From positions 699 through 64,698 of the forward strand of contig CALXDR010000004.1 of the NCBI GenBank assembly GCA_944387115.1: a stretch of 64,000 nt of DNA. Direction: 5' to 3'. Made by a program: the position numbers and the translations under genes. The notes below the pieces were generated by a model, which searched no databases, was not told the DNA's origin, and worked only from the letters and a program-made list of their open reading frames with translations. This DNA comes from an uncultured Oscillospiraceae bacterium. GTDB lineage: Bacteria > Bacillota > Clostridia > Oscillospirales > Oscillospiraceae. Each line of letters starts with the position of its first letter. Position 1 is the first letter of the stretch. Shown piece after piece: positions 2 through 51,623 of the stretch.

Positions 2-1423
2 GAGATTTCCGAGCTGATGAGCAAGCTGCTCACCCGGGCAGGCATCCCCCACAATGTGCTCAACGCCAAGAACCACGAGCGGGAGGCGGAAATCATTGCC
101 CAGGCGGGCAAGCTGGGCGCAGTCACCGTGGCCACCAATATGGCCGGACGAGGCACCGACATCCTGCTGGGCGGCAACGCTGAGTACATGGCAAAGGCGG
201 AGCTGCGCAAGAAGGGTATGAGCGAGGTGCAGCTGGCGGAGTGCGACGGGCACGCCGATACCGACAATGAGGAGATTTTGGAGGCCCGCCGGGCGTTTGC
301 CGAGGCGGAGGCCCGCTACAAAGAGGCCATCCGGGAGGAGGCTGAGCAGGTGCGTCAGGCGGGTGGCCTGTACATCCTGGGCACCGAGCGCCATGAGTCC
401 CGCCGCATTGACAACCAGCTGCGTGGCCGTGCCGGCCGTCAGGGCGACCCCGGTGAGAGCCGCTTCTTCCTCTCGTTGGAGGATGACATCCTCCGTCTGT
501 TCGGCTCTGAGCGCATTCAGAGCATGATGGAGAGCCTGGGCGTGGACGAGGATACCCCCCTGGACCAGAAGATGCTCTCCAGCGCCATTGAGTCCGCCCA
601 AAAGCGGGTGGAGTCCCGCAACTTCCAGACCCGCAAGACGGTGCTGGAGTATGACGACGTGATGAATACCCAGCGTGAGGTCATCTATGAGCAGCGCCGC
701 AAGGTGCTCGACGGCGAGGATGTCCACGCCGCTGTGGAGAATATGCTCACCGGTGTGGTGAGCAATACCCTGGCCGGACACGCCGGGGAGCAGGGCGTGT
801 TCACCCGTGAGGGCTTCCGTGCCGCCGCTGCCACGCTGATGCCCCTGTATACCCAGGAGCAGATGGAGCAGTTCCAGGCCCAGGCCGAGCAGCTGCCTGT
901 GGCGCAGCTGACCCAGCAGATGCTGGAGCAGGCCCAGGCCAACTACGACCAGCGTGAGCACCAGATTGACGAACAGATGGCCCAGCTGGCCCAGGCCACC
1001 GGCAAGAGCCCCATGCGGGAGCTGGAGCGGGTGATTATGCTGCGGGTGGTGGATGAGTACTGGATGGACCACATCGACGCCATGCAGGAGCTGCGCCAGG
1101 GCATTGGTCTGCGGGCCTATGGTCAGTCCGACCCGGTGGTGGAGTACAAGCGTGAGGGCTTTGATATGTTCGAGCAGATGATCGCTGCCATCCAGGAGGA
1201 GACGGTGCGCCGTCTGTTCACCGTGCGGGTGCGCACCAACGAGGAAATCAAGCGGGAGCGGGTGGCCAAGGTCACCGGCGAGTCCGGGGGCAGTGAGACC
1301 CCTGTGAAGAAGGCCCCGGTGAAGCACGCTGTGAAAATCGGCCGCAACGACCCCTGTCCCTGCGGCAGCGGACTGAAGTGGAAGAAGTGTACTTGTAAGG
1401 AGTATCATAGTGGGGAAAATTAA
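2..1423 (+). CDS. secA: Preprotein translocase subunit SecA, C-terminal part (gene starts upstream of window)
   Basis: Motifs VTVATNMAGRGTDI, GTERHESRRIDNQLRGRAGRQGDPG and C-terminal SEC-C GRNDPCPCGSG; frame open from base 2. Confidence 0.98.
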   Translation, partial: EISELMSKLLTRAGIPHNVLNAKNHEREAEIIAQAGKLGAVTVATNMAGRGTDILLGGNAEYMAKAELRKKGMSEVQLAECDGHADTDNEEILEARRAFAEAEARYKEAIREEAEQVRQAGGLYILGTERHESRRIDNQLRGRAGRQGDPGESRFFLSLEDDILRLFGSERIQSMMESLGVDEDTPLDQKMLSSAIESAQKRVESRNFQTRKTVLEYDDVMNTQREVIYEQRRKVLDGEDVHAAVENMLTGVVSNTLAGHAGEQGVFTREGFRAAAATLMPLYTQEQMEQFQAQAEQLPVAQLTQQMLEQAQANYDQREHQIDEQMAQLAQATGKSPMRELERVIMLRVVDEYWMDHIDAMQELRQGIGLRAYGQSDPVVEYKREGFDMFEQMIAAIQEETVRRLFTVRVRTNEEIKRERVAKVTGESGGSETPVKKAPVKHAVKIGRNDPCPCGSGLKWKKCTCKEYHSGEN

Positions 1424-2107
1424 GCGTCCGAGCCCCCGGAGCAGCTTGACTGGACCGCAGCGAGGAATAAATTTCAGGGCGGGCTATGCCCGGCCAAATT
1501 TGTTCCGAGACGGAGGGAAGTCAAGCGTTGCGGAGGGGAGCGAGGCGTGATAATGAAGAAGTGAACAGCCCCGGTCGCAGCCTGGTTGGACCGCAGTGAG
1601 GAATAAAACCCAGGGGGGCGGAGCCACCCGGTTTTGTTCCGAATCGGAGCGAAGCCAGCCGTTGCGAACGCTCTCACAAAAGTCCAAGGACTTTTGTGAG
1701 GGGGATGCAGGGGGAATAGGGTTCGATTCCTGCGGAATTGTCGCCCTATTTCCCCCGAGCAGAGTGTTTTCTTCAGGCGCATGTCCCCGGAAAACACGGG
1801 CCTTGGATTTTATTTCTCCGCCTGCGGGCGGAGAAACTCGGTGAGACACGAAGCGTCCGAGCCGTCGTGAGCAGGCTGGATGGAGCGGAGTGAGGAATAA
1901 AACCCAGGGGGGGCGGAGCCACCCGGTTTTGTTCCGAATCGGAGGGAAGCCAGCCGTTGCGAACGCTCTCACAAAAGTCCAAGGACTTTTGTGAGGGGGA
2001 TGCAGGGGGAATAGGGTTCGATTCCTGCGGAATTGTCGCCCTATTTCCCCTGAGCAGAGTGTTTTCTCCAGGCGCATATCCCCGGAAAACACCAGATTGG
2101 ATTTTCT
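1422..2107 (+). repeat. Mosaic palindromic repeat array 1 (3 scaffold units + 2 T modules)
   Basis: Units start (G/T)AAGCGTCCGAGCC; 1596-1797 and 1890-2092 are near-identical ~200 bp copies; modules recur in five other arrays. Confidence 0.93.
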
Positions 2108-12434: not shown

Positions 12435-12668
12435 CCTGCATCCTATTAAAAAAGGCCTTGGGGGTTTGGGATGGCTCGGACGCTTCTAAGATGTCACGCC
12501 TCGCCTGCTCACGACGCTCGGCTTCCCTCCGATTCGGGACACAAACAGGCCGGCCGTGCCGTCCTTGGTTTGTATCCCTCACTTCGGTCCATCCGAGCTG
12601 TTCGCAACGGCTCGGACGCTTCTAAGATGTCACGCCTCGCCTGCTCGCGACGGCTCGGGCGCTTCTAA
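12435..12668 (-). repeat. Mosaic palindromic repeat array 2
   Basis: Reverse strand reads GAAGCGCCCGAGCC...GAAGCGTCCGAGCCGTTGCGAAC...GAAGCGTCCGAGCC followed by a degenerate T-module start. Confidence 0.88.
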
Positions 12669-18254: not shown

Positions 18255-18412
18255 ATTCGGGGGGGCTGCGCACTTCTTTGTTGTCACGCCTCGCCTGTTC
18301 GCGACGGCTGGCTTCGCTCCGATTCGGAACAAAACCGGGTGGCTACGCCCCCCTGGGTTTTATTCCTCGCTTCGCTCCATCCAGCCTGCTCACGACGGCT
18401 CGGACGCTTCTA
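18255..18412 (-). repeat. Mosaic palindromic repeat array 3 (single unit)
   Basis: Begins in the TAG stop of the upstream permease (TAGAAGCGTCCGAGCC); close match to unit at 1850-1966. Confidence 0.9.
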
Positions 18413-32498: not shown

Positions 32499-32593
32499 GG
32501 CCCGCCCCCCTTTCTTTTGGTGAGTATAGGTGTCACTTCTGTTTGTCGTGGGAAAGCCCTGTGCGGGCGGGGTGTGGCTGGTATGGGAGTTGT

Positions 32594-32775
32594 CCTTCGG
32601 TCTAGCCCATCCGAGGGGCGGCGGGGTTCGGACGCTTCTAAGATGTCACGCCTCACAACCCGCCGCTGTCCCTCGGCTTCCCTCCGACTCAGGGCAAATC
32701 CGGTCGGGCTATGCCCGCCCTGGGTTTTGCCCTTCGCTCCGGTCCATCCGAGCTACTCCGGGGGTTCGGCACTTC
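32594..32775 (-). repeat. Mosaic palindromic repeat array 4
   Basis: One full unit close to 50675-50815 plus a truncated unit sharing CCGAACCCCGCCGCCCCTCGGATGG with 41279. Confidence 0.88.
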
Positions 32776-39305: not shown

Positions 39306-39518
39306 GCCGTCTCACCCTTTGTTGTCAGTGCCCCGCCCCCTTCCGGGGGCGAGGCTGACAGATACCTTCAAATGTTCGAGTTACGCACTGAGTGCAGGCC
39401 GGAGGGGAGCTACCCTCCGGCCTGCATTCATTTTGCGGGGCAATGGGGAGATGGGGCGGGGAGGGTGTATCCCCAGCGCCGGGTGGGGCATAGAGTGGGG
39501 CAGAGAGGAGGGGGAGGT

Positions 39519-40997
39519 ATGCGCCTATCCCAACTGCTGGCCCCGCTGGGGCTGGCGTGTACACAGGACACCGAGGTGACAGGGCTTGCCTGTGACTCCC
39601 GCCACGTCAAGCCGGGGATGCTCTTTGCAGCCCTGCCCGGCCAGCACCGCCGGGGGGAGGATTACATTGCCCAGGCGGTGGAGCGGGGGGCCTGCGCAGT
39701 GCTGCGGGGGGAGGAAGGCGGAGCAGCGGGCGTAGGGGTGCCCTGCATCACCGTGAAAAATCCCCGGCGCACCCTGGCGCTGCTGGCGGCGCAGTGGTAC
39801 CAGCACCCGGCCCAGTCCCTCACCCTGCTGGCGGTGACAGGCACCAAGGGCAAGACCACCACGGCCCATATGCTGCGGGACATCCTGCTGGAGGCGGGAT
39901 ACCGGACGGGGATGGTGGGCACGCTGGGCACCTTTTTGGGGCGGGAGCAGCTGGCTGTGCCGGACAACACCACCCCGGAGCCCATTACCCTCCAGGCACA
40001 GCTGCGCCAGCTGGCGGATGCGGGGTGTACCCATGTGGTGCTGGAGGTATCCTCCCAGGCCATGAAGCAGGAGCGGTTGGCGGGGGTCACGGTGGACGGG
40101 GCGCTGTTTCTCAACCTGTCCCCAGACCACATTGGGCCGGGAGAGCATGGCAGCTGGGAGGAGTACCAGGCGTGCAAGGCCCGGCTGTTTGCCCAGTGCC
40201 GCCTGGCGGTGGGCAATGGGGACGACCCCAGCTGGAGCGCCATGGCAAAGCGGATTCCCCCTGGCGTGGCGCAAAGCACCTTTGGCTTTGGCCCTGGGGT
40301 GAGCCTGCGGGGCAGTGGGGTGGAGCCTGCGGGGGATGGGCTGTCCACCCGGTTTTCTGTATCAGACTGCGACGCCCCCTATCAGGTGGCGCTGCCCGGG
40401 CAGTTCAACGCCGCCAATGCCCTGGCGGCAGTGGCGCTGTGCCGGGCTATGGGGGTGGAGGATGGAGCCATTCGAGGAGGGCTGGCGGGGGTAAAGGTGC
40501 CTGGACGCACCCAGCGGGTGGAGGGGGTGGAGCACCCCATGGTGCTCATCGACTATGCCCACAATGGGGAGAGCGTCCGTGCCCTCCTCTCTGCGCTGTC
40601 CGCATACCCCCACCGGCGGCTGATTGTGGTGTTTGGAGCGGGGGGCGACCGTCCCCCCATGCGGCGGCGGGATATGGCGCTGGCGGTGGCGGAATGGGCG
40701 GATTTGGCGGTGGTCACCGAGGACAATCCCCGGTGGGAGCGGGTGGAGGACATCTGCGCCCACATCACTGCCGCCCTGGGCAGCCGTATCCCCTGGCGGG
40801 TGGAGTACAACCGGGAGCGGGCCATCCGGTTGGCGCTGGAGCTGGCAGGGCCGGAGGATCTTGTGGCGCTGCTGGGCAAGGGGCATGAGCGATACATCGA
40901 GTGCCAGGGGGTGCGCCGTCCCCTGTGGGAGGAGGAAGTGGTTAGGGAAGCGTCCGAGCCGTTGCGAACAGCCCGGATGGAGCGAAGTGAGGAATAA
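39519..40997 (+). CDS. murE: MurE ligase paralogue 1 (DNPR motif, meso-DAP type)
   Basis: VTGTKGKTTT, TTPEP, EVSSQA, IDYAHN, GAGGDR, TEDNPR; last ~16 codons come from repeat array 5. Confidence 0.9.
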   Translation: MRLSQLLAPLGLACTQDTEVTGLACDSRHVKPGMLFAALPGQHRRGEDYIAQAVERGACAVLRGEEGGAAGVGVPCITVKNPRRTLALLAAQWYQHPAQSLTLLAVTGTKGKTTTAHMLRDILLEAGYRTGMVGTLGTFLGREQLAVPDNTTPEPITLQAQLRQLADAGCTHVVLEVSSQAMKQERLAGVTVDGALFLNLSPDHIGPGEHGSWEEYQACKARLFAQCRLAVGNGDDPSWSAMAKRIPPGVAQSTFGFGPGVSLRGSGVEPAGDGLSTRFSVSDCDAPYQVALPGQFNAANALAAVALCRAMGVEDGAIRGGLAGVKVPGRTQRVEGVEHPMVLIDYAHNGESVRALLSALSAYPHRRLIVVFGAGGDRPPMRRRDMALAVAEWADLAVVTEDNPRWERVEDICAHITAALGSRIPWRVEYNRERAIRLALELAGPEDLVALLGKGHERYIECQGVRRPLWEEEVVREASEPLRTARMERSEE

Positions 40998-41480
40998 AAC
41001 CCAGGGGGGCGAAGCCACCCGGTTTTGTTCCGAATCGGAGTGAAGCCGGGCGTCGTGAGCAGGCGAGGCGTGACATCATCGAAGCGCTGAGCGCTTCAAA
41101 AAAGTCCAAGGACTTTTTTGAGGGGATGCAGGGGGAATAGGGTTCGATTCCTTCGGAATTGTCACCCCATTCCCCCTGAGAAGAGTGTTTTCCGAGGCGC
41201 ATGTCCCCGGAAAACACAGGATTGGACTTTATTTCGCCGCCTGCGGGCGGCGAAACTCTGTGAGACAGAAGCGAAGCGTCCGAACCCCGCCGCCCCTCGG
41301 ATGGACTGGAGCGAAGGGCAAAGCCCAGGGAGGGCACAGCCCGGCCGGGTTTGCCCTGAGTCGGAGTGAAGCCGGGCGTCGTGAGCAGGCGAGGCGTGAC
41401 ATCATCGAAGCGCTGAGCGCTTCAAAAAAGTCCAAGGACTTTTTTGAGGGGATGCAGGGGGAATAGGGTTCGATTCCTGT
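40947..41480 (+). repeat. Mosaic palindromic repeat array 5 (2 units + 1 full and 1 partial T module)
   Basis: Starts inside murE 3' end; 41040-41150 duplicated at 41364-41478. Confidence 0.92.
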
Positions 41481-49797: not shown

Positions 49798-50400
49798 GTG
49801 AGCAGATTATCCCCCAAACAACAGCAAATCTATGACTATATCCTGGATTTTTCCCAGGAGCATGGCTATCCCCCCTCGGTGCGGGAAATCGCCCAGGCGG
49901 TACACCTGCGCTCCCCGTCCACAGTGCATTTCCACCTCAAGGGGCTGCGGGAGGCGGGGTTCATCAGCCAGGCGGAGGGGAAGACACGGGCCATCTCCAT
50001 CGCCGACGGCGCACACAACCGCCGGGACCAGGTGCCTGTGGTGGGGGCGGTGGCTGCCGGCGCCCCGATTCTGGCCCAGGAGTGTATTGACGAGTACCTC
50101 ACCTTTGACACCAACGGCCTGACGGGGGAGCACTTTGCCCTGCGGGTGCAGGGGGAGTCCATGCTGGATGCGGGGATTCTCCCGGGAGATCTGGTGGTGG
50201 TGCATCAGCAGCAGGACGCCCGCAACGGAGAAATTGTGGTGGCCCTGTTTGAAGATGAGGCCACGGTCAAGACCTACCGCCGGGGCAGTGATGGACACCT
50301 GTGGCTGCTGCCGGAAAACCGCAGCGGGGAGTACCAGCCCATTGACGGCACAGGCTGCACCATTTTGGGGAAGGTTGTGGCAGTGGTGCGGAGGTATTAA
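49798..50400 (+). CDS. lexA: SOS repressor LexA
   Basis: GYPPSVREI, VAAGAPI (Ala-Gly cleavage site), GESM, ATVK; GTG start after AAGGAG. Confidence 0.96.
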   Translation: MSRLSPKQQQIYDYILDFSQEHGYPPSVREIAQAVHLRSPSTVHFHLKGLREAGFISQAEGKTRAISIADGAHNRRDQVPVVGAVAAGAPILAQECIDEYLTFDTNGLTGEHFALRVQGESMLDAGILPGDLVVVHQQQDARNGEIVVALFEDEATVKTYRRGSDGHLWLLPENRSGEYQPIDGTGCTILGKVVAVVRRY

Positions 50401-50403
50401 ATA

Positions 50404-50945
50404 GAAGCGCTGAGCCGTCGCGAACAGCCCGGATGGACCGGAGCGAGGGATAACCATGTAAGGCAGGCGTAGCCTGCCATGGTTGTCCCGAGACGGAGGG
50501 AAGCCGGGCGTCGTGAGCAGGCGAGGCGTGACAACACAGAAGCGCTAAGCCGTCGTGAGCAGGCTGGATGGACCGAAGTGAGGAATAAAACCCAGGGGGG
50601 CGCAGCCCCCCGGTTTTGTCCCGAATCGGAGGGAAGCCAGCCGTTGCGAACAGGCGAAGCGTGACAGCGAAGAAGCGTCCGAGCCCCCGGAGCAGCTCGG
50701 ATGGACTGGAGCGAAGGGCAAAACCCAGGGCGGGCATAGCCCGGCCGGATTTGCCCTGAGTCGGAGGGAAGCCGAGCGTCAGCGGAGGGGAGAGAGGCGT
50801 GACAATGAAGAAGCGTCCGAGCCTTCTCAAAAAAGTCCAAGGACTTTTTTGAGGGGATGCAGGGGAAATAGGGTTCGATTCCTGTTGGAATTGTCACCCC
50901 ATTTCCCCTGAGTAGAGTGTTTCTCCAGGCGTATGTCCACGGGAA
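50404..50945 (+). repeat. Mosaic palindromic repeat array 6 (3 different units in tandem + T module)
   Basis: Starts 3 bp after lexA stop; three ~135-140 bp units with different central hairpins. Confidence 0.93.
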
Positions 50946-51080
50946 AGAAGAGCGTACACAATCTTACGCACCTGGGGCAAGGCGTTCAAACGCTGTAGGG
51001 CCGGGGGAAAACCGCCCCGGCTCCATCATTTCGTGGCGTTTTAGCGGGGCAGGCGCCCGGAGGAGAGAGGGGGTGGGGAG

Positions 51081-51449
51081 ATGTCCCACAATGAGCATCC
51101 AGCTGACGAGTGCTGCACAGAGCAGATTGTCCACCGGGATCGGGTGGAACAGGTGGCGCAGCATCTGCCGGAGGACGGGCAGCTGTACCAGCTGGCGGAG
51201 CTGTTCAAGGTATTTGGGGACGCAACCCGGATGAAGCTGCTGTACGCCCTGTTTGAGTCGGAGCTGTGTGTGTGCGACCTGGCGCAGCTGCTGGGGGTGA
51301 GCCAGTCGGCGGTGTCCCATCAGCTCAGAGTGCTGAAAAATGCCCGGCTGGTTCGCTTTCGCCGAGCGGGCAAGGTGGTGTTTTACACGCTGGCAGACCA
51401 CCATGTGCGTAAAATCATCGCCCAGGGTCTGGAGCATATTTGCGAATAG
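51081..51449 (+). CDS. ArsR/SmtB family metal-sensing repressor
   Basis: FKVFGDATRMKLL, ELCVCDLA, SQSAVSHQLRVL, alpha5 site DHHV...HICE. Confidence 0.93.
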   Translation: MSHNEHPADECCTEQIVHRDRVEQVAQHLPEDGQLYQLAELFKVFGDATRMKLLYALFESELCVCDLAQLLGVSQSAVSHQLRVLKNARLVRFRRAGKVVFYTLADHHVRKIIAQGLEHICE

Positions 51450-51499
51450 GGGCGGCGTGGCATCATCGAAGGGTTGCTCCCCGCAGCAGCCGGGTAAAC

Positions 51500-51542
51500 T
51501 ACAAGTCCGCTGTGCTTACGGCACAGCGGACTTGTAATTTTT
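51500..51542 (+). terminator. Intrinsic terminator after ArsR gene
   Basis: TACAAGTCCGCTGTGC...GCACAGCGGACTTGTA followed by T run. Confidence 0.85.
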
Positions 51543-51623
51543 TCGGCGGTGTAGTACCATATAGAGCGCAATAGACTGGGCAGTCCCAGCGTTTTTAGTA
51601 GGAGTTTAGTAGGAGGTGCTGCA

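Follow-up and report, generated by a model that had tools for sequence, protein, structure and literature searches.

Organization of the repeat arrays

The window, a 64,000-nucleotide stretch of contig CALXDR010000004.1 from an uncultured Oscillospiraceae bacterium, carries 11 full copies and one partial copy (a 5' fragment) of a repeat unit. Motif search and manual alignment placed them in six arrays starting at about 1421 (+), 12665 (-), 18410 (-), 32775 (-), 40947 (+) and 50404 (+). The sixth array is located between lexA (stop codon TAA at 50398-50400) and an ArsR-family gene (51081-51449). It comprises, at 50404-50825, three head-to-tail units of approximately 130 nt and a solo 14-nt head, followed by a second repeat designated module B. 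The features of the window are as follows.

50404..50533 (+): array 6 unit 1; core beginning GGGATAACCATG; loop GC-GTA-GC; head GAAGCG 3 nt past the lexA stop
50539..50666 (+): array 6 unit 2; core beginning GGAATAAAACCC; loop GC-GCA-GC
50672..50804 (+): array 6 unit 3; core beginning GGGCAAAACCC; loop GC-ATA-GC
50810..50823 (+): solo head GAAGCGTCCGAGCC, the terminus of array 6
50826-50946 (+): module B
51450..51476 (+): decayed tail-plus-head remnant GGGCGGCGTGGCATCATCGAAGGG, directly past the stop of the ArsR-family gene
1421..1556 (+): array 1 unit a; head overlapped by the secA stop TAA (1421-1423)
1557..1669 (+): array 1 unit b; 3'-truncated after AGCCGTTGCGAAC and joined to module B
1666-1848: module B
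1850..1964 (+): array 1 unit c; 3'-truncated and joined to module B
1961-2108: module B
12623..12665 (-): array 2 coreless mini-unit consisting of head, b motif and tail
12492..12622 (-): array 2 full unit; loop GC-ACG-GC; solo head beyond it at 12473-12486
18282..18410 (-): array 3, a single unit between an ABC-2 permease gene and an ABC ATPase gene; solo head at 18264-18276
32644..32775 (-): array 4 full unit; loop GC-ATA-GC; between DAPG-hydrolase-like and DnaD-like genes
32590..32638 (-): array 4 5' unit fragment, from the head to GGATGGGCTAGACCGAAGG
40947..41075 (+): array 5 unit a, entered by a Mur-ligase ORF
41088-41270: module B
41273..41401 (+): array 5 unit b; loop GC-ACA-GC
41414-41478: module B

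In array 3, the permease stop TAG (18410-18412) has its G in common with the unit head. The murE-like Mur-ligase ORF (39372-40997) extends for about 16 codons inside unit a of array 5 and ends at an internal TAA (40995-40997). As this ORF has no stop before the repeat, the insertion has altered the C-terminus of the protein.

The original prediction, made from the letters of the window, described a uniform apical loop, a short motif shared by the units and three different cassettes in array 6. All three descriptions agree with our alignment. The apical loop reads GC-NNN-GC in 11/11 units, with GGA (twice), GTA (twice), GAA, GCA, ATA (twice), TAT, ACA and ACG at the variable positions. The motif AGCSGTYGYGARC has 11 exact matches in the window against 0.02 expected, all in unit orientation, and the three units of array 6 carry three different cores.

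Module B opens with a terminator-like hairpin (CTCAAAAAAGTCC/GGACTTTTTTGAG), continues with GGGGAATAGGGTTCGATTCC, and is always found 3' of an array of the hairpin repeat (module A). It was seen only in contigs of the window's species and is absent from the 110 sampled loci of other species, so it is not part of the hairpin repeat family. Module B also includes a tRNA T-arm-like segment, GGTTCGATTCC. Between the ArsR-family gene and a FeoB-like gene, an inverted repeat at 51489-51547 with 27-nt arms (85% complementary) and a 5-nt loop is followed by a T-run; this structure probably represents an intrinsic terminator or attenuator and does not belong to the repeat family.

Covariation supports a single closed hairpin

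The units are approximately 115-135 nt long. RNAalifold analysis of the 11 window units yielded 26 pairs, 13 of them with compensatory changes. A covariance model built from these units found 129 copies in the window and 80 other-genome loci, and 43 further copies in 30 additional loci. In the 129-copy alignment, 91.8% of the cells are paired, compared with 70.5% in column shuffles, and 26/26 pairs have changed on both sides. When the pairing partners were slid by 1-3 columns as a control, only 31-68% of the cells remained paired. Because this alignment had been fitted to the model, 64 full-length units were aligned independently with MAFFT and analysed anew. RNAalifold recovered the helices once more and also gave a closed hairpin, in which the outer pairs join head GCGY to tail RGCGU and GCC to GGC. 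These outer pairs show 15-18 compensatory changes, and a G.U in the head:tail pairing is conserved in 60/64 units. As head and tail are complementary, each unit is predicted to fold as a single closed hairpin, supported by covariation. In a second subfamily, the outer arms read from the sequences are entirely different yet complementary.

The b and b' motifs hold the palindromic core TCGCGA/TCGTGA and pair together in 77.7% of the cells, compared with 29-39% when slid. The original prediction stated that the units lack terminal inverted repeats and carry direct terminal motifs. This is true only superficially, since the unit ends are complementary and the "direct" motifs pair with each other, which makes the statement misleading.

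From the outside in, the predicted fold consists of the outer helices head:tail and b:b', a helix c:c', a purine-rich internal region, a long variable helix, and a triloop with a C:G closing pair. The internal region reads 5' AUGGA-CC-GRAG-C-GA / 3' GA-GU-CGGA-GG-GAAG and is split by two 2-bp helices. Between the covarying helices, the purine-rich loops hardly vary across genera (98-100% conservation): AUGGA, GRAG and GA on the 5' arm, and GA, CGGA and GAAG on the 3' arm. No K-turn, loop-E or CsrA-site identity is claimed for these loops. The fold is strand-specific. There are 213 G.U/U.G cells versus 48 A.C/C.A cells, folding with RNA parameters gave -70.4 kcal/mol for the sense strand versus -57.9 kcal/mol for the antisense strand (z -5.6 versus -3.4), and DNA parameters likewise favoured sense over antisense.

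The apical loop is less uniform outside this genome. Among 122 copies from other species, a 3-nt loop is present in 111/122 (91%) and the closing C:G pair in approximately 94%. The GC..GC frame occurs in 68/122 of these copies and GNA in 50/111 of their triloops. The GC-NNN-GC loop, which had been called invariant, is thus invariant only among this genome's copies, and the d(GCGNAGC)-like cap emphasized in the original prediction is not conserved family-wide.

Arrays abut the stop codons of co-oriented genes

Genes were called with a GC3-based caller and checked against Pfam and the gene calls of related contigs. The upstream gene is co-oriented with the array in 81/98 cases. The beginning of the array lies -4 to +7 nt from the stop of the upstream gene in 41/92 arrays, compared with 3.06 expected under a null of uniform intergenic placement and random orientation (0/20000 simulations reached 41). 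The stop codon lies inside the unit in 10 more arrays, and manual inspection added 4 cases. At the 5' end, the junction is ragged, reading [TGA]GAAGCG, [TAA]GAAGCG, [TAG]AAGCG, [TAA]GCG or [TAG]CG, or with the TGA within GTCG[TGA]GC. TAG is enriched among the abutting stops (13/57, versus 10% genome-wide). One site has TAG followed by AAGCG in the window and TAA followed by GAAGTG in another strain, which indicates that the first base of the element sometimes completes the stop codon. Where a comparison can be made, native C-termini are intact: LexA ends in RRY with and without a unit, and ribosomal protein S10 ends in IEIKL.

The 3' end of the units, GCGTGACA, is constant. In many cases, the Shine-Dalgarno sequence and ATG of the next gene, or else an intrinsic terminator, come within the next 10-30 nt; some units sit 3' of a terminator T-run, not 5' of it. 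Within arrays, units are always head-to-tail and never inverted, and about one third of the arrays finish with either an additional solo head or a mini-unit (head-b-tail) that lacks a core. Units were found directly past the stop of S10 (rpsJ, ending in DIEIKL) at L066:271-387, L082:7672-7792 and L111:805-919, so labelled by sampled locus. The rpsJ-rplC spacer carries units in three species, and in L111 the unit is followed by rplC, i.e., it resides within the essential S10 operon.

Approximately 12-17% of the arrays are antisense to their neighbours or located in leaders, T-box leaders in both orientations included. Four units lie beside a T-box-like AGGGTGGAACCGTGG (L018:2897-3036, L036:2676-2813, L084:5104-5242 and L089:722-860), one in sense and three, orthologous to each other, in antisense orientation. 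Insertion is therefore not confined to stop codons or to one orientation.

A widespread, high-copy family in Oscillospiraceae

An exact-pattern scan of one genome per species detected the family in at least 63 Oscillospiraceae species-level assemblies and at least 110 stretches. The named carriers are all Oscillospiraceae (Flavonifractor, Pseudoflavonifractor, Intestinimonas, Lawsonibacter, Flintibacter and Ca. Enterenecus), and the others include many gut MAGs from human, mouse, chicken, rabbit and yak. A metagenome scan returned at least 120 stretches, of which the labelled ones are gut samples. In DNA runs containing the window's organism, the k-mer depth of the units is approximately 80-200x that of flanking single-copy genes, which points to copy numbers of the order of 100 per genome or higher.

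Searching the whole window against Rfam 15 gave 0 matches at the gathering threshold, and the region 50300-51100 gave only chance-level matches (E >= 0.5, listed up to E 10). A blastn search with a unit had no match in phage and plasmid collections, and a literature search found no description of this repeat family. The stop-codon-abutting hairpin repeats are a new, widespread, high-copy Oscillospiraceae family.

Arrays vary between strains and species

The lexA site was compared in contigs from other samples that encode an identical LexA. Some have three units at the site, some have two that are fused, and some have a single chimeric one; the breakpoints lie within several different conserved segments. 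At the ABC-transporter site of array 3, where the window has a single unit, other strains carry either two to four units of different types or an additional module B. Strains whose LexA or ABC ATPase is identical thus differ in unit types and in unit number (1-4), which bears out the original proposal of a dispersed, non-coding, non-autonomous family with DNA-level dynamics. Array 4 was unchanged across nine contigs. Window units at unrelated loci reach 92% identity among themselves, compared with no more than 82% to any sampled unit of another species. These observations suggest that the family has been amplified within lineages at the DNA level and that arrays are quickly remodelled by recombination or slippage between short conserved segments.

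Positions shared between species, which the original prediction had named as speaking against itself, do occur. Sites common to several species are lexA (window and L054), an arsR-like gene (L032 and L081) and rpsJ (L066, L082 and L111). In the arsR-like orthologues of L032 and L081, an intact unit lies exactly between the stop and the Shine-Dalgarno sequence of the next, cadA-like gene. Two candidate empty sites were rejected: at lexA in L114 the unit is absent but the downstream synteny differs, and the arsR site of the window (51450-51476) contains the decayed remnant instead.

A stretch of Pseudoflavonifractor sp. AF19-9AC (L102:2660-3424) holds six tandem units at 130-nt spacing, five with equal score; these five are apparently identical, which suggests recent local amplification. 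A metagenome contig (L122:650-1500) encodes the identical ABC ATPase and carries an array, but an ECF-transporter gene on the other strand lies upstream and the permease is missing, suggesting a rearrangement with an endpoint at the array. Many metagenome contigs (L001-L010, L126-L131) end inside or at the edge of arrays, and in the assembly graphs of runs X18, X19, X32 and X33 the arrays appear only as fragments of about 60-90 nt.

Apparent transcription of the units

Metatranscriptome contigs run from lexA into unit 1 of array 6. The repeat-to-flank depth, estimated from k-mers on unstranded assembler contigs, was 25-400x in RNA libraries, which may contain DNA, and 80-200x in DNA. In one same-study comparison (X2 versus X33), the RNA excess over unit 2 was at most 4-6-fold. 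The RNA and DNA ratios are similar and thus do not point to strong accumulation of a processed RNA; transcription of the units appears to be at the level of an ordinary mRNA.

Search for a mobilizing transposase

According to the original prediction, the units are REPIN-like elements mobilized in trans by an HUH enzyme, with no obvious target-site duplication and no transposase in the window. Both negative observations were reproduced. None of 50 outer array boundaries has a target-site duplication: the longest words shared by the flanks match the shuffled null, and tests at fixed offsets were equal to the null. No Y1 transposase was found among the window ORFs.

The Y1 search was performed by phmmer --max on six-frame ORFs of the window, 120 genome loci and 120 metagenome loci with four verified queries: E. 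coli RayT (NC_000913), IS608 TnpA (checked against PDB 2a6m), Sulfolobus TnpA and ISDra2 TnpA. In approximately 1.75 Mb around approximately 250 arrays, it gave no Y1_Tnp homologue better than E=0.3, although a single-sequence phmmer search may miss divergent RAYT groups. A Y1/HUH candidate picked by regular expression (L083:2951-3652) was discarded, having no Pfam match. If units flanked a RAYT, a few matches would be anticipated under rough assumptions on copy number and detection sensitivity, so that their absence near arrays is suggestive, not decisive. The mobile-type DNA dynamics and the lack of target-site duplications in the original prediction are retained, and its HUH/REPIN mechanism is unsupported.

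Comparison with known repeat families

By analogy, the family seems to work most like REP/BIME, BOX and MIRU elements, and it fails the defining tests for REPINs, IS200/IS605 derivatives and attC cassettes. REP/BIME/REPIN elements of Proteobacteria are likewise high-copy extragenic hairpin repeats, often clustered, at gene 3' ends or between cistrons; they are transcribed with the mRNA, lack target-site duplications and are amplified in a lineage-specific way. In E. coli, REPs located close to a stop can influence both translation and the decay of the mRNA. With REPINs in particular, the units share high copy number, intergenic location, lineage specificity and the absence of target-site duplications. 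In contrast, REPs are 20-40 nt long and alternating or inverted, whereas the Oscillospiraceae units measure 115-135 nt and are head-to-tail, and the GTAG-type 5' tetranucleotide of REPs is not apparent in the unit consensus. The arm motifs of the unit are direct, purine-rich and non-complementary (internal loops without a stem), so that a unit differs from an inverted pair of REPs.

BOX elements of Streptococcus pneumoniae are also modular Firmicute repeats with a variable number of internal modules, a likeness that is architectural only. They differ in host clade and unit architecture; we know of no sequence relationship between the units and BOX, and to our knowledge BOX elements have not been reported to abut stop codons. 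BOX follows the layout boxA-boxB(n)-boxC, is transcribed, has a predicted RNA structure and an uncertain mobilizing enzyme (PMC3184786). MIRUs resemble the units as intercistronic direct tandem repeats that are co-oriented with the operon, overlap flanking codons with their ends and vary in copy number between strains; their insertion is believed to be tolerated because the neighbouring gene continues to be expressed (PMC12548453, PMC3184786). MIRUs are 40-100 bp long, contain small ORFs coupled to the downstream start and have tetranucleotide direct repeats at filled sites. Unlike MIRUs, the units have no conserved ORF and no target-site duplication, and they abut the upstream stop codon.

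IS200/IS605-derived PATEs share with the units the lack of terminal inverted repeats and target-site duplications, strand-specific folded ends and possibly a short left-flank target. In PATEs, two separate hairpins lie subterminally and the left junction is precise, whereas each unit has one closed hairpin and a ragged 5' junction. IS200/IS605 elements insert precisely 3' of a fixed tetra- or pentanucleotide, whereas the units show only a loose T-R-R enrichment, and neither TnpA nor TnpB was found near the units in approximately 1.75 Mb around approximately 250 arrays. In integrons, the R''/L''-L'/R' sites of attC flank cassette ORFs beside an integrase; the units lack cassette ORFs.

Alternative explanations

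A RAYT or IS200/IS605-type TnpA encoded elsewhere could recognize the folded strand and move the units in trans without target-site duplication. We regard this as possible but unlikely. The strand-specific, G.T-tolerating fold, the absence of target-site duplications, the similar motifs in direct orientation near both unit ends and the lineage-specific amplification all favour it. Moreover, a T-R-R triplet lies just 5' of the head in approximately 40-50% of cases versus 12% background, non-stop sites and internal junctions included, and might serve as a short target on the left flank, as for IS608. Clostridia do contain group 1 RAYTs and IS200-type TnpA (PMC5581495, PMC6006769), and selection of a single-stranded DNA hairpin for transposition competence would equally lead to the covariation and the G.T asymmetry. 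On the other side, RAYTs are usually flanked by their own repeats (PMC5581495), and the search of approximately 1.75 Mb around approximately 250 arrays gave no Y1_Tnp homologue. The arrays are direct, a unit is no inverted doublet of REPs, its direct motifs pair with one another, the GCGNAGC-type loop varies across the family, and the ragged 5' junction is unlike a precise cleavage site. HUH targeting also does not predict a position tied to the stops of co-oriented genes. An IS200/IS605-type element would be expected to keep one orientation relative to the replication fork. The GC skew of the window is positive throughout, yet three arrays lie on the plus and three on the minus strand, following the gene strand; across loci, array orientation relative to local GC skew is confounded with gene strand.

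The exact abutment of stop codons, the covariation of all helices and the 98-100% invariance of the loops across genera are also what would be seen if the unit were a host cis-acting RNA module. Its purine-rich loops would bind a specific protein or the terminating ribosome and so regulate mRNA decay, termination, or ribosome recycling or coupling; the spread to many copies would be secondary. The loops do contain SD-like GGAGG and tandem G.A motifs, and units are kept at the same gene ends across species (rpsJ-rplC spacer, lexA and the arsR-like gene). Against such a module, unit number and type vary freely between strains at one site, sites are empty or decayed in relatives (lexA in L114, the arsR remnant in the window), antisense copies exist, RNA does not over-accumulate, and no partner protein or phenotype is known. 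We consider it decidedly unlikely. Coupling to translation termination could take either of two forms, a mobile element that targets stop codons and sometimes rebuilds them (TA+G) or an RNA module whose GGAGG/G.A loops engage the ribosome or a recycling or decay factor; this idea is speculative and, in our estimation, quite improbable. A tyrosine recombinase acting at the repeated head of attC- or dif-like cassettes would explain the head-(body-tail-head)n layout, the extra solo head of about one third of the arrays and the chaining of differing unit types at one site. This is highly improbable, as no integrase or recombinase gene recurs beside arrays in the gene lists examined, no cassette ORFs lie between units, breakpoints fall in several conserved segments and not at one crossover site, and the flanks are housekeeping genes (secA, lexA, murE-like, rpsJ). 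Finally, co-oriented direct tandem arrays in intercistronic spacers that overlap the upstream stop, together with the conserved ATG in GGATGGA, recall MIRU-like mini-ORF repeats encoding small peptides translationally coupled to the flanking genes. Here, start codons and the upstream stop do not overlap, the frames opened by the ATG, as read from the unit sequences, end differently among unit types, and the variation is covariation of paired helices. We give this reading hardly any credence.

A proposed co-transcribed structured repeat family

On balance, we lean towards a new family of co-transcribed structured repeats, REP/BIME-, BOX- or MIRU-like, dispersed to new loci by some mobilizing enzyme. 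The hairpin would form on only one of the two strands, namely the one sense to the upstream gene. Units would typically start at or over the stop codon of a co-oriented gene, end just before a terminator or the Shine-Dalgarno site of the next cistron, and thus ride on mRNAs as 3'-UTR or intercistronic stem-loops. We infer that the units spread by a DNA-level process and act, or are at least tolerated, as such RNA stem-loops. As RNA, the hairpin may constitute a 3'-end barrier or a processing site. A closed hairpin would keep the stop and the downstream start close together and leave the ORF and operon expression intact, and could therefore be tolerated at stop codons. The similar RNA and DNA depth ratios, the antisense arrays (12-17%, with T-box leaders in both orientations) and the units past terminator T-runs stand against this preferred reading.

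Flavonifractor, Intestinimonas, Lawsonibacter and related genera are abundant gut commensals whose genomes each harbour roughly a hundred copies of the unit or more. In these genomes, the repeats break metagenome assemblies, confound annotation and alter protein C-termini, as in the murE-like ORF. Because the arrays are hypervariable between strains, they may serve as strain markers. The combination of stop-codon abutment on the sense strand, near-invariant loops and strong covariation offers a tractable system for studying how structured repeats are tolerated or exploited in operons, and it serves a second question, how REP-like elements spread without an obvious transposase. If true, coupling to translation termination, in either form, would represent a new class of stop-codon-anchored element in many gut Oscillospiraceae.
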